Shown: positions 4,791-62,311 of the stretch, one piece after another
How the letters are laid out: each line of letters opens with the position of its first letter
Position numbering within the stretch: position 1 is the first letter of the stretch
From: Pristiophorus japonicus
Taxonomy: Eukaryota
Reading direction: 5' to 3'
DNA: 64,000 bases
Assembly (NCBI RefSeq): GCF_044704955.1
Contig: NC_091999.1
Coordinates: 50,282,001 to 50,346,000 of the forward strand
Made by a program: the position numbers and the translations under genes
The notes under the pieces: model-generated
Seen by the model: the letters and a program-made list of their open reading frames with translations, nothing else
Databases searched by the model: none
What the model was told of the DNA's origin: nothing

Positions 4791-6410
4791 ATTATCCAGA
4801 GGTAAAGAAATAGAGAGAGACAAAGAGAGACTGTAAGGGGACAAAATACCATCACTAAAGTGGGAGTGGACAGACGGACAGATGGTCACTAAAGTGCCTA
4901 CTGAAGGTAGTGAATTGATCTGACACATGGTCGAGATTTGTAGGCCTTATCAGTATTAGGAGGTTCTGAGGAATCAGGAGTTCCTCTGTCTTACGGTAGG
5001 GATTGTAATATATATTAAATTGACCGGTTGTATGAAAAACTCACTTATGTATGTACAGCACGCTTATACACTCGCTTTTTATGGGTTTTAAGTAGCGGAG
5101 ACAGCAAATTGTGCTTCACAGTAAAGCGTGATGAACCATTCGTTGTGTTAACCTTAATAAAGACTGAGGGAAACATACATTCAGTACAGCATAACACATC
5201 CATCAAGGTCAGTGGAGAATTAACAGTTTAGAAACAACAAGATTGGACAGCATCTCAATCTCATGGGATTCTGAAGGGAACTCAAACATTTTCACTAGAA
5301 TTCTCTTGGGAACAGGATATGAAAGTACGTATTTGGGAAAAAGATAGCAAATCCTGGGAAGCAATTTCAATTCAAACTTCATGAGGAATTGAGGCAAATT
5401 TGACACCACAGAATAACACATTCCAGAAGGGTGACATGTGATGCAAGATGGATAGGTGGCGAAGCACCACTCAGAGCCAGTCTGACAAGGGTCGACTCAT
5501 CAATGCAAGTTCGTTGATATCAGTAGGCCAATCGATGTTTTTTTTAAGAGGGGCGCACACCTCTAAAATTGAAGAAATGTATTTGCAAAACCTCTGTTCT
5601 GGGAAGGTCCATCCATGAAATCTTCCCCTGCATGCTTGAATAAAAACCGGTTGAAACGAAGTTTCATGTGAGTGATTCTGTGGTCGCTATTCGGGCGGGT
5701 GGGTGTCGATTGCTTATATCAGGGAGTCCACCTTGAGGAAGAGAAGTTTTCCTTCTACACCAACAGAGACAATGATACAAAGAGGTTGAGAGATACAGCG
5801 ACTGAGCAAGCGGTACAGGGAGCGAGAAAAAGAGATAGAGAAAGAGAGAGCGAGAGAGATACATAGCTAGATAGACTGATACAGAGATACAAAGAGAGAT
5901 AGAGATGGAAAGAGAGAGAGAGAGAGAGAAAGGGAAAGGTACACAGATAGAGAGACTGATACAGAGATAATGAGAGACAGAGAGAGATGTAAAGAGAGAC
6001 AGAGAGAGAGAGAGAGAGAGATTCGTGATTGTGTTTCTTGATAAAGATCTTCACTCCAACCTCAGTATCATGATTTCAATCTTGTCTTCTGACGCTGATT
6101 CGTCCTGTTTTTTTGCATGGACAATGAAAGGTTGACCATGTTATAAAACCCGTCAGCATCTGTCAGTATGTGCTAGAAGCTTTCGTTTCTACTTATGGTT
6201 TGCAGCGATCTGTTCCCCAGGTGCCATTCAGGTATTTGTTTCCAGTAGCTCTCCTGTTTACACTGAGGGTGGGCTTTGCGCAATGCATTGAGCTGTGTGT
6301 ATGTGTTACTGTCATTTATGAAATTGCACGTATGGGTTCAGCCTCCATTGCTTGAGTGTTGTTTATTCTGATAACATGATGCCTTTTACTTGCTAATGCT
6401 CCTTATCCAG

Positions 6411-6710
6411 TCCAGTGAGGAAATATTGTCCGTGTTTCAGGACCCACCGAGTATCATCTTGGGTGACGGGCAAAGTTTCACTTTGAAGTGTAATTATCCG
6501 ACATCACCTCCTCACCCTTCTTTTTTCTCATGCATTCAGCAGCCAGAGGCAAATCCGCAATAAATACTGCAAAGCTCGAGCCAGAAAAAAATTAACTGCC
6601 TTTGGGAAGTGTCTGCTCTAGTTACATTAGACAATGCCATAGGAACTGTTCATTTAACCATTCAATATTGCCAGGTGTCTGACAGCGTCATTTATTACTG
6701 TTCACTGGGT
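6411..6710 (+). pseudogene. TCR V-alpha/V-delta-like variable exon, pseudogene
   Basis: The frame from 6411 reads SSEEILSVFQDPPSIILGDGQSFTLKCNYPTSPPHPSFFSCIQQPEANPQ*ILQSSSQKK...LDNAIGTVHLTIQYCQVSDSVIYYCSLG. Both V-set cysteines are present (6489, 6699), with TLxCxY, a decayed WYxQxP..PQYIL (TAA at 6561) and DSxxYYC. Preceded by a pyrimidine tract and AG (6409-6410). A possible decayed leader lies at 6168-6231, after TATAAAA (6142). Confidence 0.75.
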
Positions 6711-7749
6711 ACAATGTGCTCTGTGCACAATGTGCATGGTTGAAAGCAGGCTTTTCCCATCTGTCAAGCTCCAACTTGACAGATCCTCCACATCTCAGCA
6801 GCCAGCACATTCGGATGGGCAAGATTGCGTTATTTATCCATATCTTGCCCAGTAAATGTCCTGAAAACTTGAACCTGATAAAAGCATTTGCATAGCCTTC
6901 TTTTAGAGGCATAGAGTTTTAAATCATAAAACTCATAGAAAAATAAAATTTTAAACACATTTTTTGTCAAAAGCCCTGCCCACTGAGGTAAGTTTATTTT
7001 AAACTGGAAATTAAAAAAAACTTTTAAAAATTTGGAAAGTTTTTTTTATTGGACAAAAATAGCTTTAATTTAAATAAATATTAAATATGTGGTGTATTTT
7101 CTATTTTTTTTCTTTTTGTTTTGATGTTTGGCGGGTGTGTTTCTCAATCATAATAATCGGAACTCCAACTCATGGAGTTCCCATTATTTTAAATGAGAAA
7201 ATATTGTATCGTGATTGGCTGCCCAGGGCCATGTGATTCCAGCTCAAGCTTCTGGACGTTAAGACGTGCACGCCTCCGTTGCACAGCGTGGAGGCCTCAA
7301 GGCCTGAATTGATGGTAGTCGCAGCATTTGAAGGTAGTTCTGCAACTTTTAAAATTTTTTAGTGAATCGCCTTCGGGAAGACCTCGACTGGGATTTCTAG
7401 ACCATTATTAAAAAAGAATGTGAAGATTGCAGTTGCGACTGTGTTTGCTGACAGAAATTTCGATGTACCACATGGTCGAGACCGTGCCTGTGATTGTATC
7501 AAAACCTAATGTGCAGCGTCAGGAAAACATTGTGCCAATTTGGAACAGTAAGAGGAGGGCAGACCTTCCAATGATGAAGTTTCTTCTTGAGAACTTAACT
7601 TTGGTATTTTTTGCCCAAGAGCGCACACTTTAATAGGTTTAAAGTCCATGTTAAGAAAATACAAAAAGGAATGTATTACACATTTGTTCGTGTTCCTTTG
7701 TGAACTTTGCTGACCTGACGATTTGCCAGATAATTTTGCATTATCCTTT

Positions 7750-30947: not shown

Positions 30948-30999
30948 ATGAGGATGAGGTCGGCGATTGCTTTCGTTCTGTTGCTGGCTTTACTTTCCC
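30948..30999 (+). pseudogene. IGHV: IgM VH leader exon
   Basis: MRMRSAIAFVLLLALLS plus 1 nt, then a GTGAG donor at 31000. The intron ends TTTTTACAG at 31127. Confidence 0.9.
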
Positions 31000-31127
31000 G
31001 TGAGTAGATTTTATTGTCCAATTTTCTCATTGTTACTGTCTCAGTGAAAGTCTCTCTCTGGAATTTTACAGAGTCAGGAATCATTTTTCGAGGATTGATC
31101 CTCGGGGTATTTTGATTATTTTTACAG

Positions 31128-31447
31128 GTGTCCAGTCGGATGTGGTGTTGACTCAGCCCGAGGCGAAGACCAGGATTTCCTGAGGCTTCCTGAGACTGAC
31201 CTGTAAACCAGCGGGTTCGATCTTAGCGGATATGGGATGAACTGGGTCCGCCAGGTTCCCGCACAGGAGCTGGAGTGGCTGGTTTACTATTACACTCCAT
31301 CGAACAAGAATAACGTCCCAGGGATTGAGAGCCGAGTTACTGTATCCAAAGACACTTCAAACAATATCTTCACGTTGGACATGAAGAACATGAGGAGCGA
31401 AGACACCGCCATCTATTACTGTGCAAGGAAGGACTACGGGAGTGGGT
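31128..31447 (+). pseudogene. IGHV: Shark IgM VH exon fused to a D segment (VD), pseudogene
   Basis: [25 protein letters not shown] (TGA at 31181-31183), then a 1-nt deletion, then [28 protein letters not shown]...[28 protein letters not shown] followed directly by AAGGACTACGGGAGTGGGT. Confidence 0.95.
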
Positions 31448-31485
31448 CACGGTGAAATACAGAGCGAGCTCTCCATACAAAAACC
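31448..31485 (+). promoter_or_regulatory. Recombination signal sequence, 22-nt spacer
   Basis: CACGGTG (31448-31454), 22 nt, ACAAAAACC (31477-31485; perfect nonamer). Confidence 0.95.
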
Positions 31486-31802
31486 CCAGACAGTGAGTTT
31501 GCTCAAACCTGCGACCATTACCACGCCAGGAGCGTCGAAGGAACTGAGGCTTAAATAAAAATAATTAGAAATAAGTTATATATATATATATATTTAAATG
31601 TATAACAGTTTTCTTCTTTATTACTATTGACTGCCATGTTGAACATGCACAGATGCTTCAGAAGTATTCCAATCATTTTTGTAAATATAATGAACGGTAA
31701 AAAATGAAATATCTCGCTGATTCACTCTTACGAGAGTCGGAATCGGGTTTTTAGAGCTGTGTGGAATTTAATCTCTGTATTTTACAGTTAACAGTCCGCC
31801 GG

Positions 31803-31830
31803 AGTATTTGACACAACGTGTCTCACTGTG
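31803..31830 (-). promoter_or_regulatory. Recombination signal sequence, 12-nt spacer, in front of (D)J
   Basis: AGTATTTGA (6/9 match to GGTTTTTGT), 12 nt, CACTGTG (31824-31830). No nonamer-like sequence at 22/23 spacing. Confidence 0.75.
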
Positions 31831-31880
31831 TTACGCAATGGGCTACTGGGGACAAGGGACCATGGTGACGGTGACTGCAG
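31831..31880 (+). other. IGHJ: JH segment (possibly a germline-joined D2-J)
   Basis: T TAC GCA ATG GGC TAC TGG GGA CAA GGG ACC ATG GTG ACG GTG ACT GCA G = YAMGYWGQGTMVTVTA, then a GTAAG donor at 31881. Confidence 0.95.
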
Positions 31881-34800
31881 GTAAGGAGCATTCACTGATT
31901 CAGTAACACTTGTATTTGTGTCTTTATTTTATATTTCTGTTTATTTTAATAATTACTTTGTTCACTGAAACTTGGGTTCGGTGGATTTTGTTTTGAGATT
32001 TTTTGCACTTATCAATGTGATTCTGCTGCAAAGTGATTATAGAATTCAACTGTTTCTCCACAGAAAATGTTGTTGATGTGATTTGGTATTTATTTGCTGA
32101 CGAGACTGTGTGTCGAGGTTACTTTAAATACCTTATGATTATTACACTGTTTGACGTTTCTGCAATGTTTAATCTTGGTGACCTCTGATTGCTGCAGTTT
32201 TTCTGATCGAATGCAAACATTGTGTTTGAATGTGTTTAAAAGAACATTGTAGGCACAAAGCAGAAAGCTTAGTGATCAGTAAATAACCTTAAGGAATTTT
32301 AAGTTTTTTCATGAAAATTACATTGTCATCTCCTGACCGAATGTTCCCGAATGATCAGATTCAATACGTGAGCTGTAATTAAGAACTGAAAAATTAACAT
32401 ACTTCCAGCTGGAACACATTTAAATTAACATTATTATAACGTAGTAATATCACCAATTATTATTTAAATATGCTATAATATCAAAATTAATGTATTTAAC
32501 ATGATCCATCTAATCACAATTCTCTGTCAGTATTTTATATTTCTGTTGAATTCAATCATTAGTTATTTCAGTGTGAGGCGGGTTCGGTGATTGTATAATG
32601 AGATTTTTTTGCAATGATATATTTGATTCTGCTGAAAGGGTTTATAGAATTACGGATCTGCTCCATGAAAGGTTCTGTCGAGGGATTCCGCCCCTCAGCG
32701 ATGTGATTTAGTGTTGATCTTCTGAGGAGAGTTCGTGCCTGTGTTACTCAGAATACCTAGAATTTGTGAAGCTGTTTGGCGTTTCTACAATGTTTAATAT
32801 CGGTGACAGCAGCAGGTTTCTGATCGAATCCAAACACGATCTGTATTTTGAAACTGTTTGAAAACAGTCGGTAGGCAAAGAACAGGACGGGTTTAGACAT
32901 CAGAAATCATTGAAAGGTATTTTAAAATCACAATTATTGAAGTGATAATTATATATTCAACTATTAATCTATGTTGACGATGCTGGTATTTTAATATGTG
33001 AAATGTAACTAGTTGCCATCTACATAATTAACTTATTCTGGTTGTAGTTGAATTAAATTACAATTAACCAACCGATTATAATGCAATAATATCTCCGAAT
33101 GTTATTAAAATATGCTATAAGTCCAATGTTCATTTACTTAATATTATTCACCTTCAAAAATCCTGCTCTACACTGGGCACCATTAAGAGAAGCAGAAACT
33201 TTTAGAGGCTGGATACAGTTGTTAATTATGGCTGCAATTATTTCATTAACAACATACTGATTCCACCGCTGTGTTCAGTTTGAGTCGGGAGTTCAATTAC
33301 TTGCTACCTCCTGTTTACACAGATGAATGACTGAGTGCAATTAATTATAACTTAAAGCTGTGTTGCAAATTGCATTTCGTCAATTTAATATATCTGCCGG
33401 GGTGTGACATTCTCACTGTGTTGCCGAAATTTGTTATTGAATCAATATTGTGTGTTGTTTGATAAAATTATCACTAAGTTAATCTTGAACACTTTGCAAG
33501 AACAAAAGCTGAGAGAGAGGCATCGCTGGCAGTCAAAGAATTGTTTATGTAATTATATTGAAATTCAAGGCAGGTTCCGACTGCGTATGGCTGGAGAAAG
33601 CAAATAATCCATTGAAATTCAAGCAGATTAATTTACTTTCAAAAGGTTCATCTGATTTTGAATTTGAAACAAAATCCTATCTCCCAAAACGCTGCTGTAT
33701 GCGGAATAGAACGGTAGACAAAGCACAAATCATATCTGAGTGCTATGTTTAATTCTTATTAATATTAAATTGATGAACAAAGTCTCTCCTCCATTTGCTC
33801 ATTCAGTTTCAGTGCCCCAGATGGTCTGAACGAATTGTTATCCTCTAGTTTTACACTGACCATTCTGGAAACTATTTTCAAGAAGTAGCAGAATATATTT
33901 AATCATCAACTTACGGGCATTTTGTGAATAACTGGTGTGTTCACCCATGAACTCATTGAATGGTGGTGCAGGCGCGAAGGGCCGAATGGCCTACTCCTGC
34001 AGCTATTTTATTGTTTCGATGAACTTTAAAAGATTGTCTGTGTTATTAAGTAGCGGAGGCTCTGCTACTGACTGCAAACTGCAAGGATATATTTTAATTA
34101 ATAAAAACGTTTTTGGGGATTAAGGTTGAGGAGAATATTTCAGCTCGAGATTCCAGCATTAGTAAACAAGCGGTTTACAGCCCATCGGAGTTGTGACCCC
34201 GGCTGGACAGAGAACTATTTAAATTAGTCCACACCCAAATCCATCATGTGAAATGTTCTTTGCAAATAGACGCAGATTATGCGATATTAGAAACATGCAG
34301 AGTTTAAAAAAGTGTCGGTCGAGAGCGGGACAATAGTAGAAATGCGTGATTATTGTCAATTATTCAAATTTGATTCCATTTAAGTAAAAATAAGGTATAT
34401 TTCTGAGTAGTTATGTATTAATATGCTGCTTAATATTGTAATATTGATTAATTGTTATGGTAAGTTAAGTAAACCATAATATATCACAAGTTATCAGGCA
34501 GAAAAGGTTTTAAAATTATTAATAATTACTTGTATTTGTATGGCTGAAATTCAAGCACATTAATTTAATTTCAAAAGTTCCAGGTAGGTATGCTTCTGAG
34601 GAGGAAGGGCCAGACTGGCACTCAGATTATTTTCAATATTCAGCTAACATGAACATTAAATTAGAATGTAACATCAGTGCTAATTCATTAAAACGTAAGC
34701 GAGCCATTACAATTGTGTTGCATACTGGTCAGTATTACAATTATTGCAACGTTTCAAGGGTTGGAGATAATGTTTAATTCATTCATAAATTAATTTAGAA

Positions 34801-38428: not shown

Positions 38429-38728
38429 TAACACCGTCTCCCCCCACCCTCTGCGCCCTGCTCTCCTCCTGTGAACAACCCAGCACCGATGGCTCCATCA
38501 CGTAGGGCTGTTTGGTGATGGACTACTCCCCTGACATCATCAGACTTTTCTGGAAGGAAGATAAAGAGCCGATCACCACTGGATTGAAGATCTACCCGTC
38601 ATTGCTCAAAAGGAATTGAGCCTACACACTGAGCAGCCAGTTAACCATCACCGAGTCCGAGTTGGGGAGCAGCACAATTTGCTGCGAGGTTCGACGTGGT
38701 GGGTCGGCGTGGAGCATCACAATGTCAG
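38429..38728 (+). pseudogene. IGHM: Cmu1 (CH1) exon, two in-frame stops
   Basis: [99 protein letters not shown] at 38427-38428, GT at 38729; TAG at 38503, TGA at 38617. Confidence 0.95.
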
Positions 38729-39219: not shown

Positions 39220-39540
39220 AACGTCCTGAACGGATCATCGTTCCTCCAATTGTTCTCCTCTTGCTAAGTTCCACTGAACAAATCATCAGCAGCAGATATG
39301 CAAGCGCCATGTGTTCAATCATCGAATTAAGGCCAAAGTCACTGACCGTGAATTGGCTGAAGAGTGGACAACTCCTGGATTCGGGCTTCACCACCTCTCC
39401 CGCCTTTGAGATGAACAGAAACGTTTTGACGGCCAGTCGGCTGACACTCCCCGCCAGGGAATGGTTCACCGGCTCGGTCCACACCTGCCAGGTCACTCAT
39501 GAAGGGGGCACACAAAGCCGTAACTTCAGCAGATCTCAGG
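39220..39540 (+). pseudogene. IGHM: Cmu2 (CH2) exon; open frame, but the acceptor appears mutated
   Basis: ERPERIIVPPIVLLLLSSTEQIISSRYASAMCSIIELRPKSLTVNWLKSGQLLDSGFTTSP...SRLTLPAREWFTGSVHTCQVTHEGGTQSRNFSRSQ. GTAAG donor at 39541; TG rather than AG at the expected acceptor (39218-39219). Confidence 0.9.
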
Positions 39541-41512: not shown

Positions 41513-41819
41513 TGGATGTCCCATGCAGCGATTAAAAATCACTCTTCGCCCACCGTAACTGGAACAGGTTTTACTGGAGGCGACGGTGACCTTAACGTGT
41601 GTCGTGTCTGACGCTCCTTATGGGCTCACCGTGACCTGGACCCGAAAAAACGAGACTTTGAAATCAGAGATTGCCGTCCAACCCGGAGAGGATCCCAACG
41701 TGTGATCAGCAACTTAAACATCTCGACAAAAGACTGGCTGAGTGGGGATAAGTTCTACTGCGTGGTGAGCCATCAGGATATGCCGATTCCTCTCAGAGAT
41801 TCCAGCCACAAGGAAAAGG
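41513..41819 (+). pseudogene. IGHM: Cmu3 (CH3) exon, frameshifted with stop
   Basis: VDVPCSD / [54 protein letters not shown] / [41 protein letters not shown] at 41511-41512, GTGAG at 41820. Confidence 0.92.
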
Positions 41820-42736
41820 GTGAGCGGGGAGATTGTTGCAATAAGTGAGCAACTGCGACAATTTCGATGCGTGTGCAAGGGCCAATTGATTATATAAAGT
41901 GTTTAATGGCTACTCTGATCATTCAGGTTGGTAATTCCACCAACTCAGCACTCTGGGACCTGACATTATGTATTTTAGGGGAAACTGGATAAGTCCATGA
42001 GCGAGAAAGAAATAGAAGCGTATATTATTAGGGTTAGATGAAGTGGGCTCGGAGGAGGCTTGTGTGGATCACAACCACCGGCATAGACCAGTTGGCCAAA
42101 TCTCCTCGTTCTGTACATTAAATTCTATGTCATTTTCCAGTCCAACGCTTCAAGATTTCAGAGAGAAAGATCACGTTCCCTCGGATAAGGGATGGAAAAC
42201 CAGAGAGGCAACAGAGGGGAAAAGGTAAAACGTTAAGATTCAACGCAGTGTCCATTTCTCTCACATCTAACCACCGGAAAATTGCTGAATTTAAATGAGG
42301 AAGGCGAGTTGTGGGCGTTGGTCTCACAGGCCACCAGTGAGAGCGGGAGGATTGGAAGCCGAGTGAGGAGGTCGCGGATCGCGGGCGATGGGTTAGGCAG
42401 GGACCCTGGATCCAGGAGTTCGGTGTAAGGGCAATTACCAGCTGGGTGCAGCAATCCCCGCATTGCTGTAACTGCTGAGATTTACACAGTTTGTCAAGCC
42501 GGACCAGCGACAGTTAAACACCAAATGGTGGTTAAAATAGAGGATTCCAATCTCATTTAAATATATTACTCAAATATAATATTACAACAGGAAGTAGGCG
42601 AGTTGAGTTCGGGATTCTGATTTTTACCAATTTAACAACCTCCACGCCCAATACCCGCCCGCTGTATTGGGTTGAAATTCCCCCATTGTCTCTGGAACTA
42701 TCCAGTTCATTGGCCTTTGTTGTAACTGTCCTACAG

Positions 42737-43102
42737 CGAAAGATCCGCGGGAACCGGCCATGTCTGTCCTCCTGCCCTCGGCAGAAGAAGTCTCCGCCCA
42801 GAGGTTGGTCAGCCTCACCTGCTTAGTGAGAGGTTCTCCCCCCGAGAGATCTTCGTCAAAAGGACCGTCAATGATAAACTGGTGGATTCCGGCAACTACA
42901 AGAACACCGAGGTGATGGCGGAGAACGGCAGCAGCTCCTTCTTCATCTACAGCCTGCTATCCATTGCAACCAAGGAATGGGCCAGCGGCGCCTCTCACTC
43001 CTGTGTGGTGGGATATGAAGCGATCCCATTGATAATCACCAACAGATCCGTCAATAAATCCAGTGGTAAAGCATTTCCCTTGTTCTGATGGACAACGTCA
43101 TT
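42737..43102 (+). pseudogene. IGHM: Cmu4 (CH4) exon and first part of the secretory tailpiece, frameshifted
   Basis: [32 protein letters not shown], 1-nt deletion, SPREIFVK(R for W)[69 protein letters not shown], then a small deletion and [10 protein letters not shown]. Internal TM splice donor G/GTAAA at 43065/43066. Confidence 0.93.
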
Positions 43103-48136: not shown

Positions 48137-50745
48137 TTCAATGGATAAATTGTAAGGTTGCAAATAGGAGCTCAGAATTATGATGAAGGTCTTGAACTTA
48201 TAATTGCTACGTAGGTAACACTTGCTTATGTAGGTACAGCGCAAATGTATAACGCATTGAACTGAATCCGTAACCTCTGTAATACTTAAACAGCCGGTCA
48301 GCAGTTTTTTTAAGTCCCTGAGGAAGAGATAAATAAGCAAGTACAGCCACTCTAACCGTCGGATAGACTGGGGCAGAGGGAAAAATGGAACAAAACAATG
48401 ATGAGAGATGGTCTGTTGCATTTACCACTCAGAGCCCGTCGGATAAGAGTCGACAAATCAATGTAACTTCGCTGATATCAATAGACCTATCGATGATTTT
48501 GCAGGAGGATAGCTCCTCTCCAAAACCTGTATAAGTTATGCTTGAAAACTTTTTTTTTCGGAGGTTCCACGACTGAACCTTCCCTTGCAATTGCTCGTAA
48601 TAAAAGCCAGTTGATCCTGGGATTTCGTGTGTTAACTTCCGTGGTCGTTATACAGTGGGAGAAAGGTGAGGTGTCGATGAACTTTATCAGTTAGTCCACG
48701 TCAAAGAAGAGAAGCCTCCTTTTTAACCCCAACATTTGGCGTCATCAACCGAATGCAGACCTTCCGACCTGGATCACGTGACAGCTAAATGGTAGTGAGC
48801 ATGTTTTTTACCACATGCAGCTGTAGCATTGACGGGGAAGGAGTTAATTTGTATAAATAATTAGAAGGGGTCAGCTGTAGGACAACTTATAACGAACCTC
48901 AGATGGCTGAAAACCAAGGGTGGGATCGGTGTATGCCTGAAAAAGAAGGAATGCAACCGCAGGGGGAGTGGACCCCAGCGATCGTTTTGTGAAATATAAG
49001 GCGTATGTCCTGAAGCGTGACGTGGTAATAACACTGTGAAGCTGGTATTGATCGTGTGAGGTGCAAACAAGAAGAAATACAACCTAAACCGTGGGTTGGG
49101 ACCCCAGGATCCAAAGAAAACAGGTCAGTGGGATAAAATGCTCGCTGAGATAAATGGAAAATTAATAAAAGAAAAGAAAAATGTTGGAAATCAAATTGAA
49201 TTTACAAAGGACAGTTTGTTTTTATCAAAAGATAGAAATATGACCTTGAAAGCTGCAGAGATGCAAAGATGATGAGGAAAATGGACTGGAGGAAGATCAT
49301 CAAAATACAAAACCTAATTTGAAGAAACGAGATTTAAATTGGCTGTGAAAAGGATATTGGTTGAAATATAAAAACTTATGAGTTAAACCCGACAACGCTT
49401 TGTGCCGAGAAAGAGAAACCAAGATGTTTAACTATGGACTGGAGTAAGGTCATCAAAAAATGATTAAGTTCAGATTCAAAAGGGGGAAAAGGTCTAAGCT
49501 ATGTGAACTCAGCACAGAAAGAAAAAACTAGGAATTACAGGATTCTTAAAAAGATGGACCGGCACTGAAGTTTAGATTTTGTGCTGAGAGAAATAAAACA
49601 CAAGATTTGCTCAGTGAACGGGACCATAAAAAAACAAAATGCTGGAATGTATATAGCTTGCGTGAAAATTGGATTTCTGGAAACAAAATAGCTATTAAAA
49701 TGTGTGGTCTCGCTTTAAATCAATAAAAAACTCGTTGGCAAGTATTTGAATTGGATGTGTAGAGAAATTGGAGTTTAATCTAAAATGCTGCCTTTCCCTC
49801 TGAGAAGGTTTTATTTTGACAACTTAACTAGTAATTTCTACTATTTTAACGGATTCCTAATTTCATAGCAAGTTTTGAAAGCACAAAGACTTGGGAAAAA
49901 TTTGCAGATCAATACCCGAAGTCACGTAATGACGCCAGGCCTTCTTACAAACCTGTAAAAGAGTTAACCCTTTCCATTGAAAGCTGTTTTATACTGGACA
50001 TTATTAATTTGGATTTCTTAATAAAAGAAAAAAGACTCACCTGACAGACAGAAGAAATGTGGGGATATACAGAATGAAAACAAAACGAAGAAAGCCTATG
50101 TAACAATATTCACCTGCTGCAGAGGACAGATAGATACTTAAACGCATCAAATTCAAGAGTTAGAAGCTCAGATAAATAAGCTCGCAGAGAAAAAGACAGG
50201 ACCAGATTGATAGTGCAGAGCACAGCCATAGCACCATCACCTACGGTAATAGAGATAATGTACCCCAAGGTGGGTAAGTGCAGTCCACAAACCCAACCTA
50301 ACAGTCAATCAGACAGGGATAATGAGTTTGGAGTAGAGGTGGCCCCGGCACATGATAATGGCTATTTATCAGTGGCACTGATACGTACGACCACCATTCG
50401 CTCCAGTGGGAGTAGAGCAGCCCAAATTACCATAAAGGAGGTGCCCCTCAGCCCACAGGAGACAAATTCTATTGAATAAGTTACCACCCGCTAAAGCAAA
50501 ATAGTAGAGATACAGAACTCTGACAAAAGATTGGAGTAGAATACTGTGACTCAAAAGGCAGGTAAAAGTGTTGGGGAGTACGGGGAACGAAAGTGGATTG
50601 AATACAAAAACCACTCTGGGGCTGATGACCGCAACATAAATGATGCAGCATTCTTGAAAATGTTTAAGGATGGACGAGGAAAGGCACATCAAAAGATAAT
50701 TAAGTGATTATTTAAGATTGGAGATGATTATGATGAAACTTTGGA

Positions 50746-51147
50746 ATGGGCAGAACATGTAGAGGGGTTAAAGATAGAACAAGGGATAAAAGAGCAAAAA
50801 TAGCAACAACAGCTTTAGCAATAGAGACGAAGGAGGAAGAGACACACTCCTGCGCAGCTCCACTGATATGTTTAAACTGCAATCAGGAAGGCAAGTTCAA
50901 TAGGGATTGCCTGCAGAAAAGCAGAGGTTTCGGCAATTCTAAAGGGAGATGTCAAAATTGTGGTAAACTTGGACATCTGGCCAAAGATAGCTGGAGTTAT
51001 GAGGAAGGCGCTGGATGGCGAGACCACAAACAGGCACAGAAGGGAATACCATTAATCAGGGAAGATCTGATGGACATGCTCAGACAAGTACCAGCACCAC
51101 TGGTATCACTGCCACCACCACCGCCCCAATCAGAGAACACCCAATAA
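50746..51147 (+). pseudogene. gag: ERV-B gag nucleocapsid region
   Basis: Two degenerate CCHC knuckles, CLNCNQEGKFNRDC and CQNCGKLGHLAKDS. Confidence 0.85.
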
Positions 51148-51499
51148 CCAACTTAGATTTGCACCTGACCCATAGGACCATCAACATACAAGGAGAGAGT
51201 GGGGCATATCAGAAAGCAACCCTAAGTGAGATGGTGTTGTCGAAGTACAGGGGTAATGCTACCTGCTCAGTTTTGGTGCTGTCAGAATACAGAAGGCAAC
51301 ATAAAGAAGGTATACAGAAGGCAGCGATACATTAAGGGAGATAGGGGTACGAATAGCTCTTCAGCGTAATCGGATAATTTTGGGGGATCAGCACGAAAAC
51401 CGAACTCAGTTCGAAAACTCGGGACACCAGCAGCAACGAATGGCAGGAACAACCATAATCCAACCCGAGTGGGATTCAAAGGCTGTATTGGGTAGCGTG

Positions 51500-53920
51500 T
51501 GCCAATTATACCCGACTCTGTGGGCACAATGCAAACAAGATTGTGGATTAGCAGAGATATCACCCATCAAATTTCCTGGACCCGAACACAAAGCTCACCG
51601 ACCGTACCAATTAACACCCGAAGCTGAGGTAGCGGTCTGTCAGATAGTGCATGAATTAGAGGAGCAAAGTATATTGAAATATGTAATAGCTTCCATTAAT
51701 TCACCTTTGTGGCTGATGAAGAAACCCGACAGGTGTTACCGACTGACTATCGGTGAATAAGGTGACTTCCGGACAACACCCAATAGTGGCAAGTCCGGCC
51801 ACAATTTTTAATGGCCTGGATCGAAATCATAAGATATTCACCATGCTGGATATAGTGAATGGAACTTGGACGATTCCCTTAGCCAAAGAGTCTCAAGGAA
51901 AATTTCTCTTCATGGTAAATGAATAACAATACACATGGCCCAAGGTACCACTGGGATTCAATAACAGCTGGAGCATATTTCATCGAATATTGTCATGGAT
52001 TTTGGAACCAGTAGTCTTAGGAGAAAGAAGGAGCGAAGTAACATATCTGGGATACATAATATCGTAAGGGAAGAGACAGATGCCCGAGGACAGTAAGGAA
52101 GCAATTCAATCAATCCCCAGACCAGGAACCGTGAAAGGGGTCAGGCAGATACTAGGGCTATTAAACTACTGCAGAAATGTTATTCCCGAATATGCCAAGG
52201 TGGCCGAACCTATACAGAAACAGGTCAAAGGATGGGAACCCTCCTAAGAGCCAGTAAACTGGGGTCTAGATCAAGAAACTGCATGTGTGCGGTTAAAACA
52301 AACTCTCACAAGTGCTCCAGCCCTGGGACTACCAGACCAGAATAGGCCCTTTTACGTCTCTTCCTACCATATTAACCATCATTATAACGCGGTAGTGATT
52401 CAATTACATGGCGAAAGGCATAGACCGTGGCATATTACTCAGATAAACCGCAACCTGTAGCTGCAGGACTGTCCAGGTGCGTTGCTGCCCTCGACTGCTG
52501 CTTGGGCCATCAGAGTTAACGAACCAATAATAATGCCAGGATGCATTATTCTACAAACCCAGCGTACCTTAGTAGAATTACTTAACACTGGAAGGCTAAA
52601 AAGGTATTCGATGCACAAATGGCGAGGTGGTAAATAATGCTCTCCCCCCTCCTCTCCTGTCACCCCCCCCACCCACCCACCCAACGGGACGGTAACAATA
52701 ATAAAATACAGAGGGAGAGGAGCATCAGTGTAGCACAACAGAAGAAGATGCGAGAAGTAGTCAGGCAAGTGAAATCCCGCTTGAGGAGGCAGACATGGAT
52801 CTATATGTAGATGGGTTTTGGCGCTATATCAATGGGACACCACAGACAGGATGGGCCGTGGTAGATCGCAGCGGTCAGGCCAAAGGGGAAGGACGGTTAG
52901 AAGAGAATCTATCAGCTCAAGTGGTTGAATTAGTGGTTCTCACATGAGGCTCTGAGGCTGGCTAGGGGAAAATGAGTAAACGTCTATACAGACAGTCGAA
53001 ACGCTTTCGGATTAGTGCATGTTTATATGATAGCCTGGAGCAGACGGGGATACACGCCCTCAGGAGGAGGACCGATTAAACATGAGGAGATTGATAAACA
53101 TCTAGTGGAAGCCTCCCACCTACCCCAGGAGTTTGCGATAATAAAGATTAAAGCACATGTAAAAAAGAATGATCAGTATGAACAGGGGAATGCATGGTCA
53201 GATGAAGCAACCAAGCGAGTGGCAGGTACACTGGCCGGGGAAGCCCAAGGCAGGGCATGTAAAATCAGGCCTGAGGAAGTAAATATGCTTGAGGTACAGG
53301 GAGAGGACAATCCGCAGGAACAGGAGGGATGGAAGCAGAGATGGGCCAAAGAAGGGACCGACGGGATATGGAGAAAAGATGGGAATGTGGTGGCCCCGGA
53401 ATGCATCCAGGGAAGCCGATTAAATTTATACCACGGGTATGTCCATACAGGTAGAACCAGCATGATAAGCTCGATGTCCAGATGCTGTTGGTGGAAGGGA
53501 ATATTTAGAGATATAGAGGACCTCTGCAGAAGGTGCGTGATATGCACAAAATAAAACCCAGTGGGGAAAGTAAAGGTCAGAATGGGACATTAGCCCCGAC
53601 CGAAGGGACTCTGGGAAAATTTGCTGGTAGATTTTATTGGACCATTATCCAGCAACAGGGGGAAAACATACTGCTTAGTTATAATAGAATTGATATAGAG
53701 TAAAAGGTTACAGATCAGCAAATCAAGAATTTCGAGAACGAAACTAAGAAACAGAAGTTCCAAACACCCCAAATAGGCAGTCAAGAGATTACCCCAGAGA
53801 GGTTCGAGATCGCATCCAAATGGATCGGTCTCTATCAGGTAATCATAGTACGTTATGGTACTTATAAGGAGTATTGGCAAGTGGAAACACTGGACCAAGT
53901 TCAAAAAGCATGGTCACTAA
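51500..53920 (+). pseudogene. pol: ERV-B pol remnants (RT, tether, RNase H, integrase N-terminus); RT YxDD and the integrase core appear deleted
   Basis: RPYQL..EA...NSPLWLMKKPD..YRLTI; LTSAPALGLPD..RPF; LYVDG...GWAVV...SAQVVEL...YTDSRNAFG; HGYVHTG...WWKGI..DI...CRRCVIC; VDFIGPL. Confidence 0.85.
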
Positions 53921-54199
53921 CTAACCAGTGACGACCGGAAAATATTGCTTTTTGCAGGACTCGAGAGCTCATGGAAATAACGTGGAGTAACGCAGCCTCA
54001 TATCAGAGACAACAGACTGAGGGATGGCAAGGCCTGTATTACAGGGACTCGGACGACATTAGTTTAATAAAACATCAAAAACACTGATGTGTCGGACGGA
54101 GCAACAGTAGAGTTAAATAACGGGCATAAAACAACGTTACAAGGAAACGAAACAACATTGGGGATGAGCCAATAATATAGAACCATAATTAGTGGGAAT

Positions 54200-55950
54200 A
54201 AGACCGCGGTGTGTTTTTAATCAGGAGGGACAAACATACTGCAACAGGGGAAGGGGGTGCAGATTTCATGAACATCTATGAATGGTGGTGGAGGGATATC
54301 TCCAGAGATAGACCCACCAACACGGCCCCATCCACTGCTTTAGCATTAATGAGCGCTACCAGGGCCTCGACCATCACACCCTCAGCGCCACAAACGTGTC
54401 CAACTGTGAACACTGGGGCAAAAGAGAAATTGATAAGGCAGACCAAGGATAAGATACACTTCAGGGTACGTCAGCGAATAATTACTGTAATCCTAAAATT
54501 AAACAATAAAGCTACCCCAACATCTGCGGGTTAAACAGTATAAGCCTGTATAGAAACCTGATCCTTCGAGCACTTAAAGGCGCTGAATCCAAAACCATGA
54601 AGTTTAATGTGGAAAGAGGGTCAGGTAAAAAAAAACGGGACAGGGGAAAAAGAGGGATACTAGAAATGGTACGAGGCAGGATACACGGCAGGATACGTGG
54701 CAGGATACACTGCAGAATACACGGCGGGATACGTGTATGTGGCGGGAGCTGCGACACTATTGACCGACACACGATAGATGATTGAGTTAACGCCTTAACA
54801 TTAACCTGACAGGGATTGCTGGAAAGGGATAAGGATAATGAAAAGATACAGGTACAGCTGGGTAATGGCGCATAAAGCGAATTATTACAGTGGCCCACAC
54901 ATTGCGAGACCACACCAGAACTATAAATGAATAGAGCAGAACGCAACTTAAGTAAAACCATACAGACAGAACTAGTACGTGCAGGATATGGAGCATGGTT
55001 GCTCAATGGAATACAACATAACATAGAGTAGCTTCAGAATAGAAAGGTGCCGGATTGGATAACATTCGATATATTTACCAACTGGACCTTGGACAAAAAC
55101 ATGACTCATGCCTGCGAGGTGCAGAGAAACAGTCATGCTTGGGTTTCAAAGGCCAGCTGTGTTACCGGACATTTAAATAGATTTTGTATTATCTATACGA
55201 CAGTATGATGTGACAACAGGAGATCCTCTATACCAAACAATGTAGGAGAAATAAGGAATCAAACTCGCGTGCGGTACGATGAAAAACCAGAAATTTAATT
55301 GAAGAGAACAACAGTACTAAGAGACTCAGCATATGTAGATTGTTATAAAAATAACCAAGTTGCTTTATGTCGAGATCCACTACGAATGATCAAAGATGAC
55401 TGTGGATATAACCAAGTGGACGGGTGCACCTTGAGTATCACCCCAACTAACACAGGATTACTAAATTATCGCTGTAGTACGAGGATATGGAGATTGATGT
55501 GTGAGCACCACGGCAACTGAAATGAATGAAGGAAAACCTCATGCACCATTATGGATATTGACTTCTGCTTTACTCCACTTGATGAGACAGATATAAATGG
55601 GTTTATTATAACCCCTGAGCTAAAGGAGGAATGATCGATGGGACAATGATGGACATTGCCTGAGGAGGTTATGCGAAGACCATCGGGCCACAAGGAAAAC
55701 CGATACTCGAATTGAAAGAGAAACAAACACCATTCGACAACATAGAGGATACTCCAGGCGGGGCAGAATGTCGGCAGAACAGTGAAGACCCCAAGTGGAG
55801 GGAAGATAGATGAAACAGCAGAAAACCCAGGCGTGGCATAATTCGAACACCGAAAAAATTTTGGCTACAAAGGACTTATACACGAATTAAGCTGGACTCA
55901 ATGTATTGGTTGTCGTGCAAGGGGGCTGACCTTGCTATCCTTTAAAAAGC
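54200..55950 (+). pseudogene. env: ERV-B env remnants
   Basis: Furin-type site RGKR/GILEMV (about 54643-54670), then AGY-rich fusion-peptide-like sequence, HTLRDHTRTINE, GYGAWLLNGIQHNIE*LQNRKVPDWI, NNVGEIRN, DCYKNNQVALCRD...DDCGYNQVDGC. Many stops and frameshifts. Confidence 0.7.
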
Positions 55951-56794
55951 TGTAACCGACGTAAGAGGTAGGCCCTAGCCCGTACTATAGTTAAAACATT
56001 GAAGAAAGGGAAAACAGACAGTCCTGCAAAAAGGACTTACATAGTATAACCTTGATGGGAAAGCCAACAGGTAGATCCAGGATCTCGGGAAGTAGCACTA
56101 CCCAAGTGAAAGGACACCCCTGGAAGCTCACCCATGTGGAATTAATTGCGAAATAGCCTATCTGGGGCAAATAGCCTGGGCCATTAGGGGGGAATTGTAA
56201 AGGATAAATAGTAAGGTTATAGAAAGGGGGTCAGAATTATGCCGAACGTAGTGAACGTATCAATTGTCGATGTATGTAACACTTGATTATATAGGTATAA
56301 CACATTTATACGCATTATATTATAGCTTAACCTTAGTAACACTGAAACAGCCAAAGTCAGCAGTTTTGTTTCAAAGTCGCTGATGAAGAGATAAATAAGC
56401 CAGAACAACCACACTCGGCGTCGAATAGACTGGGGTGGAGGGCAAAATACAATAAAACAATGATGAGAGATGGGCAGTTTCATGTACCACTCAGAGCCCG
56501 TCTGATAAGAGTCGACAAATCACTGTAACTTCGCTGATAGCAATAGACCTTTCCATGATTTTGGAGGAGGATAGCTCCTCTCCAACACCTGTATACATTA
56601 TGCTTCAAAATTCTTCTACTTCGGAGGTTCCAAGACTGAACCTTCCCGTTCATTGCTCGTAATAAAACCGGTAAACCTGAGGTTTCGTTTGTTTACTTCC
56701 GTGTTCGTCATACAGTGGGAAGCTGGGCGAGGTGTCGGTTAACTATATCAGTTGGTCCATCCCGAGGGAGAGAAGCCTCTTTTTTACCACAACA

Positions 56795-59857: not shown

Positions 59858-62311
59858 ATGTTCTGGGAGATTCCAACTCAGCTTTGGATCCTGTGGGCAC
59901 TTTTGGATGTAGAACGTATTTATTACCCGCTCCTCGCTGCTGTTGGTGTTCCTGGTGAGTCCTTCATCTGCAATAAATTATGTAACCCATGTTTCTCTGT
60001 ATTTGCTGTCCTTGTCCTTTAGTTCTAGTTATTAATTGTATCAATTTAAACCTCTTGTTCTTTGTCTGGCAATGCAAATAAGTTTCTGTCATGTAATGTT
60101 TGATCGTTTGTTAATTCGCTGCTCCCAGTTCAATGAACAGTATGTTGTTTCCACAACTTGCTTCCAGTGATAGTGGTTTACAGGATTTGAGAGAAATTTG
60201 ATTTTATTGACACAGATATGTTGGTGAACGATTATATTATTGAACAGCTTGCAGTCAGCTTTCTGCACTGATGCCCAGTGTTGGATAATAAATATGTGTT
60301 CAGCGGTAACAAGTGTTTTAAGGTCCACTGGTTATTGTTAATGACACTGACCAGTGGAAATCAGCGTTGAGAGACCCTTCACAAATACACTGAGATATGA
60401 GACATTATCCACTAATGATTCAGCTATAGACAGTTGTCGCAATTTCCACCGCCTCCCGCTCTGCCTCACAGTCACTAATTCCAGATGGTCAGGACAGGGT
60501 TAAAACTGCAATACGTCTTCCAGTAAAATGTTTATTCAGTTGTGTTTGAATTGATTTATTTCCCTTGTTCAGCCACAGTTCAGGAGAGCTCGGGGTGGGC
60601 CGCACGGTAGCAACTATTCAAAATGGAGCACTATATTGTGAAATAGTTTGATATTTCCAGTCTCAAACTCTCTCTGTCTACTGGAAGACTGTAATTTTCT
60701 CACACCAGGTGAAAGGCAGTTGGTTGACACAGTTCCAGCTGTAAACAGACACGTTCGTAAAGCGACAGTCCCTTCTTTAAAGATTATTTGCAATGTTCGT
60801 GGAAAGTCAGCTTAAGCCAATTACAAAGTGTACTTTCAAAACAATGGTAGGAAAGGTTCTGATTTCGACACATAATACATTTCAAGTCATCTTCTTCAGC
60901 TTACGACACAACCGCAGTAACCTCGCCAAAGACTGCATTCCCCTCTCAGGCCACAGATTTCATTCCCCACCTTGGCCACAGACTCCATTCCCCTCACTGT
61001 ACAGAGATTCGATTCCCTTTCGTGGACAAAGAATCGATTCCTCTCCTTGGCCACATACTCCATTCCCCTCCCTGTCACAGACTCCATTCCTTTCCTTGGC
61101 CACAGACTCCATTCCCTCCCTTGGCCCCCAATTACATTCTCCTCCCTGGACACAGATTTCATCCCCCTCGCTGTCCCCATACTACATTCCCATCCCTGGA
61201 AAACACCACACGTCCCATCCGCTGGTGTAATCAGTCCTGTCCCAAACAGTACACGTCCCATCCGATGATTTCATCAGTCCTGACCCAAACACCACAAGTC
61301 CCAATGGCTGGTTCATATAATCCTGACTCATTTCACACATAATACTTTGAGACAGCTGTTGTTGCTCTCAATCTGAAATATAAATTCCCTCTTTTTCTCT
61401 TTCTTACAGTGAACTTAGTGACGATAATGATCCTGTCTCAAGGAAGGTGCGGTCTCTCCAAGTGTGTCACCCGTTACCTGGTGGCAATGGCAGCGGCGGA
61501 TCTACTGGTCGTTATCCTCGACCTGATATCCAGGCAGATTGCTATTCGTTATTCAACCGTGTTTGTGTTCATGTGGAAGATTAATGTTTGTAATATCCAT
61601 GCCATCCTGCTTTACGCAGTCACGAACTGTTCCGTCTGGTTCACAGTTGCTTTTACCTTTGATCGATGTATAGCCATTTGTTGTCAGAAGCTCAAAACCA
61701 AATACTGCACCGAGAAAACGGCGACTGTGGCTGTGGGAACAGTGAGTGCGCTGTTCTGTGTAAAGAACACTTTCTGGTACTTTATGTATGGAGGTATGTA
61801 TAATATTTCCAATAGTCCCTGGTTTTGTTTTGTTCGATTGGAAGTCTATGAGTCAGTATCATGGGCAGTAATTGAATTCCTTCATTATATTATAACACCG
61901 TTTATTCCATTTGTTCTGATCCTTCTGCTCAATACTTTAACTGTCAGACACGTTTTAGTGTCGAGCAGAGCCCGCAGGAGACTCAGGGCCCACAGCAGTG
62001 GGGAGAGTCCCAGTGACCCAGAGATGGAGAAACGAAGGAAATCCATCATTTTACTGTTTGTTATATCCGGCAATTTTATGCTCTTATGGGCAGTGTTTCT
62101 GTTGTATTCTGTTTTTGAACGATTGTATTCGTTAAACGTTATTCCTGTATCTCTACCTAAATATGTACAGGAAATGGGATTAATGCTTCAGCTCCTGAGT
62201 TGCTGCACCAACACATGTATTTATGCCGTGACCCAGACGAAATTCAGAGAGGAGTTGAAGAATGTGGTGAAATATCCCTTTACTGTAATTGTTAAATGCA
62301 TTAAATTATAA
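59858..62311 (+). CDS. GPR139/GPR142-like class A GPCR, intact two-exon gene (exon 1 59858-59954, exon 2 61410-62311; 332 aa)
   Basis: Exon 1 MFWEIPTQLWILWALLDVERIYYPLLAAVGVP plus G/GTGAG. Acceptor TTCTTACAG (AG at 61408-61409) is in matching phase. Exon 2 has 7TM hallmarks (VNL TM1, MAAADLL TM2, FTFDRC TM3, TPFIPF TM5, LSCCTNTCIY TM7, FREEL helix 8). 97+902=999 nt, open. Confidence 0.92.
60925..61195. repeat. 25-bp minisatellite (GCCACAGACTCCATTCCCCTCCTTG)n in the GPCR intron
   Basis: About 10 diverged units. Confidence 0.85.

Follow-up and report, generated by a model that had tools for sequence, protein, structure and literature searches.

We describe here a dead IgM minicluster of the shark Pristiophorus japonicus in which V was fused to D in inherited DNA, likely by one germ-cell RAG event acting on a cluster that had likely lost its second D (D2) already; we give this reading as a whole a probability of about 80%. 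The locus lies in a stretch of 64,000 nucleotides (hereafter, the window) on contig C23 of the 5.9-Gb genome. On its own it matters little, being a dead copy in a known germline state; the family around it, with split and joined heavy-chain paralogues that are 85-99% alike, documents V(D)J recombination in germ cells in close detail.

Layout of the window locus

The window displays the arrangement of an elasmobranch IgM minicluster, i.e., one V, D sequence, and one J within ~2 kb, with four C-mu exons and a secretory tail downstream (Table 1). Its constant region, made up of four C1-set exons plus that tail, is of IgM type; in an intact paralogue, the fourth exon together with the tail has Ig mu among its best PDB matches. 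Every feature named in a preliminary description of this DNA is present where that description had placed it. The Cys-Ala-Arg codons (31420-31428) are followed by 19 nt (31429-31447) and then by the CACGGTG recombination signal sequence (RSS) with a 22-nt spacer; the J said to lie ~340 bp further on, behind a 12-spacer RSS and with no free D between, starts 345 nt past the nonamer of the D 3' RSS, and a scan of the window cluster (L001) for RSSs yielded no other between that element and the J-side 12-RSS.

To score the RSSs, mismatches were counted and the paralogues served as reference. The D 3' RSS pattern has its sole match with at most one mismatch in the 64-kb window at this site, and none of 100 shuffles gave one. 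The J-side 12-RSS has a perfect heptamer (31824-31830) and a nonamer (31803-31811) that scores 6/9. The window D is identical at 14 of 17 positions to the free D of nine single-D clusters and at 16 of 17 to the D of seven V-DJ clusters. Elsewhere in the window lie a decayed V-like fragment (6375-6740, +), with weak TCR alpha V matches (best E 0.007) and no Pfam match, and an open frame of 322 aa (61343-62308, +) of the rhodopsin-family GPCR type.

Table 1. Parts of the IgM locus in the window (positions count from the first nucleotide of the window).
Feature	Positions	Strand	Evidence or remark
Leader exon of IgM VH gene	30948..30999	+	Frame open from ATG (30948) to GT donor at 31000
VH exon, family I, pseudogene	31128..31430	+	Pfam V-set E 8.6e-14 (3' frame); V ends of 29 unjoined paralogues
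Likely V-end remnant (last 2 nt of VH exon)	31429-31430	+	V ends of 29 unjoined paralogues
D (D1), full 17 nt, germline-fused to V	31431..31447	+	Matches to paralogue Ds
D 3' RSS, 22-nt spacer, CACGGTG-22-ACAAAAACC	31448..31485	+	Heptamer and nonamer as in free-D paralogues
Former D1-D2 spacer, 317 nt	31486..31802	+	Aligned with D1-D2 spacer of two-D cluster
12-spacer RSS, inherited from 5' side of lost D2	31803..31830	-	Nonamer 1 nt off D2 5' nonamer of two-D clusters; flanks align
JH	31831..31880	+	2 extra nt (31831-31832) plus full-length J, 14 nt before Trp codon; donor GT at 31881
Cmu1, two in-frame stops (38503, 38617)	38429..38728	+	
Cmu2, open frame, 77% to intact paralogue	39225..39540, ends approximate	+	
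Cmu3, stop and frameshift	41514..41821, ends approximate	+	
Cmu4 and secretory tail, frameshift, damaged tail	42745..43100, ends approximate	+	

Related clusters and the V-D junction

At least 83 IgM clusters were collected from the genome, from searches with junction DNA (best 40 of 99 candidates scored), the D 3' flank (best 40 of 44), the V 3' flank (29 of 29), and J patterns (41 and 57 matches, every one examined). All cluster counts are lower bounds, a few clusters may be false duplicates on small contigs, and contig depths were kept out of the copy numbers. Family I, that of the window, has 69 clusters: (i) nine V-D-J with one free D, (ii) 26 VD-J with the window junction (family A), (iii) nine VD-J with another junction (family B), (iv) 20 V-DJ in four junction types, and (v) five VDJ. 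Family II has 14, namely 12 V-D1-D2-J and two V-DD-J. IgM constant exons occur in both families, the family-II C exons and tail being 65-89% identical to those of family I, and the J introns of the two are 74% identical. The family-II clusters (L090-L096, L098-L104), all of them off C23, have a divergent VH that we take to resemble IgW V regions. An assignment to IgW from the V sequence was rejected, as the four C exons and tail are of IgM type; a V/C chimera was dropped given this type and the stated identity to family I.

The nine one-D clusters (L032-L035, L041-L044, L081) read V23/12-D-22/12-J with an open V; all four C exons are intact in L033, L034, and L081, and a Cmu4 lesion is present in L041 and L042. 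Family B (L027-L030, L036-L040, on C23, C2538, and C3800) has a 4-nt V/D overlap and an open V in 9/9 copies. The V-DJ clusters (L075-L080, L082-L085, L097, L114-L122) have junction types with 7, 3, 9, and 1 copies, one of them (L077) lying on another chromosome-scale contig (C19). The remaining joined loci (L031, L086-L089, L092, L101) are the two family-II V-DD-J clusters and the five VDJ genes, the latter showing three junction types. A dispersed repeat (L107-L109, with 10 more matches on C1-C13) contains, in its interior, a sequence resembling a 12-spacer RSS; as homology continues upstream of the heptamer, the sequence does not mark a terminal repeat.

The V-D junction of the window is present throughout family A, with 23 of the 26 copies spread along 43 Mb of C23 and three on small contigs. 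In a tree built from 1 kb of 5' flank plus V, with the junction left out, family A forms one clade (100/100). In five copies compared, the 5' flank and V share 90-99.9% identity with those of the window, and the copies display nested, shared substitutions, a few being identical over 1 kb. Since 26 diverged copies form one clade, a pattern that a somatic product cannot give, we read the V-D join as inherited in the germline and as made once.

Alignment to the unjoined clusters of the same genome, as the preliminary description had suggested, defined the V end, the 17-nt D, and the full-length J. In unjoined V segments a 23-RSS begins 2-4 nt beyond the Arg codon, and what extends V in the window is their free D, so that the proposed germline V-D1 join holds. 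Measured on L034, the fusion skips 477 nt, with loss of the V 23-RSS, the D1 12-RSS, and the spacer between, and the deletion ends coincide with RSS borders. The enzyme was presumably RAG.

The second base after the Arg codon is A in 28/29 unjoined V ends. The junction reads AA in 25/26 family-A copies, and GA in the basal copy, L026, as at the V ends of six unjoined clusters. The simplest reading would thus be that V was trimmed by 1-2 nt, D was left untrimmed, no N bases were added, and a G-to-A change came later; two N bases are possible, the number of non-templated nucleotides needed being zero if the basal GA is ancestral and two at most. Of the trimming and fixed non-templated nucleotides that had been proposed for this junction, the trimming stands (V loses 1-2 nt, D none), and added nucleotides are not needed, the two bases being more simply V-encoded. 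Families A and B as one clade were rejected on a J-intron tree (p-AU 0.0002) and kept on the 5' tree (0.22); they are counted as two join events because their junctions differ.

D2, the J-side 12-RSS, and competing readings

The D-J spacer of family I, represented by L081 with the window spacer in the same alignment, can be aligned over its full length to the D1-D2 spacer of a two-D cluster (z 26), 12-RSS flank included; against the D2-J spacer, z is 2.8. The window cluster thus retains a D1-D2 spacer bounded by its 22- and 12-spacer RSSs, and a J-side 12-RSS independent of the D2 flank, as expected of a native single-D cluster, was not found. Because this spacer homology ties it to the D1-D2 spacer, the J-side 12-RSS is the former 5' RSS of D2, with D2 and the D2-J spacer gone. 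A free D2 is present in 0/69 family-I clusters, and all 14 places where the D2-J spacer was detected belong to family II. A search for J with a 22/23-RSS, using a loosened nonamer pattern, returned 14 matches, 12 in family II and two apparently unrelated to Ig, with none on C23. In this assembly, two-D clusters survive only in family II; it counts against our reading that, as the assembly contains no two-D family-I cluster, the D2 and native J of family I are reconstructed from family II.

The same 12-RSS sits directly on J in 9/29 V-unjoined paralogues. The loss of D2 would thus predate the V-D join, since V-unjoined family-I clusters share it. The preliminary description had proposed a D2-J join within the window cluster, and had named paralogous J segments natively carrying a 12-RSS as evidence to the contrary; the nine V-unjoined clusters are of this kind, with no recognisable D2 coding sequence, and that join could not be upheld. 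The 12-RSS does descend from the 5' RSS of D2, yet the J-side event is not specific to the window cluster.

Before the Trp codon, J has 14 nt in all 14 family-II clusters and in 12 clusters of family I, and 16 nt in 32 family-I clusters including that of the window; i.e., two bases separate the heptamer from full-length J in the window and none in 12 paralogues, D2 coding sequence being unrecognisable. The two forms are mixed on trees, and the 14-nt clusters were rejected as one clade (p-AU 0.001); as the forms do not sort cleanly, gene conversion or more than one D2 loss would be needed. On the J-intron tree, the 12-RSS-J clusters also fail as one clade (p-AU 7e-9), a V-DJ family being nested within the group. 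Within the junction of that family is a stretch resembling D2, which matches one family-II D2 variant at 8/8 positions and the common one at 7/8; this could mean that D2 persisted late, and P plus N bases would also explain it. In nine V-DJ clusters the full 17-nt D lies flush on a 14-nt J, a structure easiest to explain if J already had the 12-RSS.

A classic VD1-D2J cluster, formed by a pair of standard RAG coding joints in which trimming and N addition left 2 nt of D2, is the alternative that fares best, and we consider it possible though doubtful. Such a state is recorded for horned shark and skate (PMC2193153, PMC5192425). Family-II D2 starts GTAC and J starts AC, such that joining on the AC common to both would produce GT, which differs by a single change from the observed TT; the 2 extra nt would, however, also fit TG-repeat slippage at the heptamer end or P nucleotides, and 12 clusters have zero bases between heptamer and J. 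The AA at the V-D junction of 25/26 copies, which added bases would explain, amounts to one substitution in V-encoded GA. The J-side event is common to V-unjoined clusters, and hence older than the V-D join.

The window V contains an in-frame TGA (31181-31183) and a 1-nt deletion near 31205, both overlooked in the preliminary description; V and C exons together carry seven stop codons or frameshifts, with similar lesions in the three other family-A clusters checked. Across family A, V is broken in 26/26 copies and the C exons in 4/4 checked. The V deletion region is common to 8/9 aligned copies, the basal L026 bearing a different lesion. For the membrane exon, no match was found in the 64-kb window (21 kb past Cmu4; it may lie beyond) or in 19 kb of three other family-A clusters, and the same search found one in 4/4 other clusters. 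An old LTR-type element (48140-56794), with a zinc knuckle at 50737 and 600-nt direct repeats that are 81% identical, lies immediately beyond the point where homology to an intact cluster ends, about where a membrane exon is expected. A full set of open V and C exons, as in a functional one-step IgM gene, is lacking in the window cluster, which likely makes no antibody. The suggestion that a single recombination would have completed the gene is defeated here by the lesions in V, Cmu1, Cmu3, and Cmu4. It suits family B, in which the C and membrane exons are intact in the single copy checked and an untrimmed D-J join would be in frame, making it the best candidate for a living one-step IgM gene.

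Family A is the largest group (26/69 clusters), and chicken VD pseudogenes serve as gene-conversion donors (PMC2193156). Amplification under selection, as a constrained-CDR3 receptor or a putative donor pool, nonetheless appears very improbable: the 25-copy expansion carries common inactivating lesions, and the J-side heptamer is damaged in 10/26 copies. The order was rather join, inactivation, and then most of the expansion; as expansion postdates inactivation, this points to neutral segmental duplication.

Slimmer still is the chance of a native single-D cluster type in which D2 was never present, like the one-D clusters of holocephalans. The nine open-V one-D clusters, three of them with all C exons intact, and their full-length J would accord with it, but the entire D-J spacer, together with the flank of the 12-RSS, has its counterpart in the D1-D2 spacer of this genome's two-D IgM clusters, and two Ds are the norm reported for nurse shark, horned shark, and skate (PMC2193153, PMC5192425).

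A somatic VD-DJ intermediate from a lymphocyte, such as PMC2435157 describes in nurse shark B cells and thymocytes, or an assembly artefact, as the small-contig copies and those identical over 1 kb might suggest, can practically be dismissed, being refuted by a diverged multi-copy clade with nested shared substitutions on one chromosome, and a short-read contig bridges the junction. DNA runs bridging the window's own junction are X1 and X3 only, which may be the source of the assembly; run X5 gave no contig matching the window stretch, and no RNA runs are listed with it, which has no bearing on expression.

Proposed history and relation to known systems

We propose the following history. In a first step, an old germline deletion would have set the 5' 12-RSS of D2 directly on an untrimmed J, converting V23/12-D1-22/12-D2-12/23-J to V23/12-D-22/12-J. 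The leading route, at a little under even odds, would be a hybrid joint made by RAG from the 5' 12-RSS of D2 and the 23-RSS of J, leaving an intact heptamer on J; the geometry fits, as family II has both signals. Next in likelihood comes a D2-J coding joint removing nearly all of D2, which on the shared AC would leave 2 nt. Somewhat less likely again is a non-RAG deletion between the two identical heptamers, which would give the same product as the hybrid joint and yield the flush form. In a second step, visible in the junction and presumably RAG mediated, V joined D at the RSS borders, with 1-2 nt lost from V, D intact, and probably nothing added. The third and fourth steps, as the lesions and copies show, were inactivation and then duplication to 26 copies, 25 of them in the lineage with the shared V frameshift.

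Run X6, another sample with the same species label that looks like RNA since introns are skipped, offers a view of a second animal. One contig spans the 12-RSS-J fusion of family B, and a J-to-Cmu1 splice has ends that, among the cluster starts compared, match only the L033/L041 type. In a spliced contig, a pre-joined D-J has been joined somatically to V, out of frame and with bases added at the join; one V-DJ junction type appears somatically completed. From these contigs it follows that a second animal has the fusions too and that rearrangement of family I continues, productive one-D rearrangement being beyond their reach. The intact one-D relatives of the window cluster likely make antibody.

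More broadly, and tentatively at well below even odds, a germline RAG hybrid joint may have moved the 12-RSS of D2 to J and made the largest IgM VH family a working one-D system, with repeated germ-cell recombination following (at least seven multi-copy joins, mostly without TdT additions). If so, RAG would have rewritten the architecture of an antibody family, beyond single genes. If the intact one-D clusters rearrange, this shark would have two parallel IgM systems, one with two junctions and one with three. RAG frequency in germ cells, the presence of TdT there, and RSS swapping as a changer of locus layout are all testable from sequence.

Partly germline-joined IgM clusters (VD-J, VD1-D2J/VD-DJ, VDJ) are known from horned shark and little skate (PMC2193153, PMC5192425). 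As there, the inherited DNA has V fused to D1 but retains the D1-D2 spacer and one 22/12 RSS pair; the window cluster differs in having no recognisable D2 coding sequence at J (0-2 nt), in a J-side event that is family-wide and includes V-unjoined intact clusters, and in being a pseudogene within a 26-copy clade. A germline hybrid joint, or RSS swap, has been described in horned shark IgH (Kokubu 1988, as described in PMC2193153). It likewise placed an RSS on a different coding segment via a RAG-compatible 12/23 pair; the horned shark case is an inversion of the D1-D2 spacer, whereas the event here would be a deletion that removed D2 and gave J the 12-RSS.

Germline-joined nurse shark NS4 light chains (PMC2193156) show several independent, tree-traceable joins among close paralogues and little sign of TdT activity, as here; the present case concerns a heavy chain with three segments and many partial states. 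The same paper notes that heavy-chain joins were hard to dissect for want of close split relatives, which this genome contains. All nurse shark IgM loci have two Ds (PMC5192425). We found no report of a D2-less or one-D elasmobranch IgM VH family in the literature searched, which takes in few subscription papers. Ratfish reportedly has one-D IgH clusters, as Rast et al. are said to have described in 1998, which would share with those here a single D and a 12-RSS on J; ratfish is a holocephalan, and the one-D layout here is shown to derive from a two-D cluster. The germline-joined state of the window cluster is known, and what is newer is a family-wide one-D conversion with intact copies, possibly by a germline hybrid joint.
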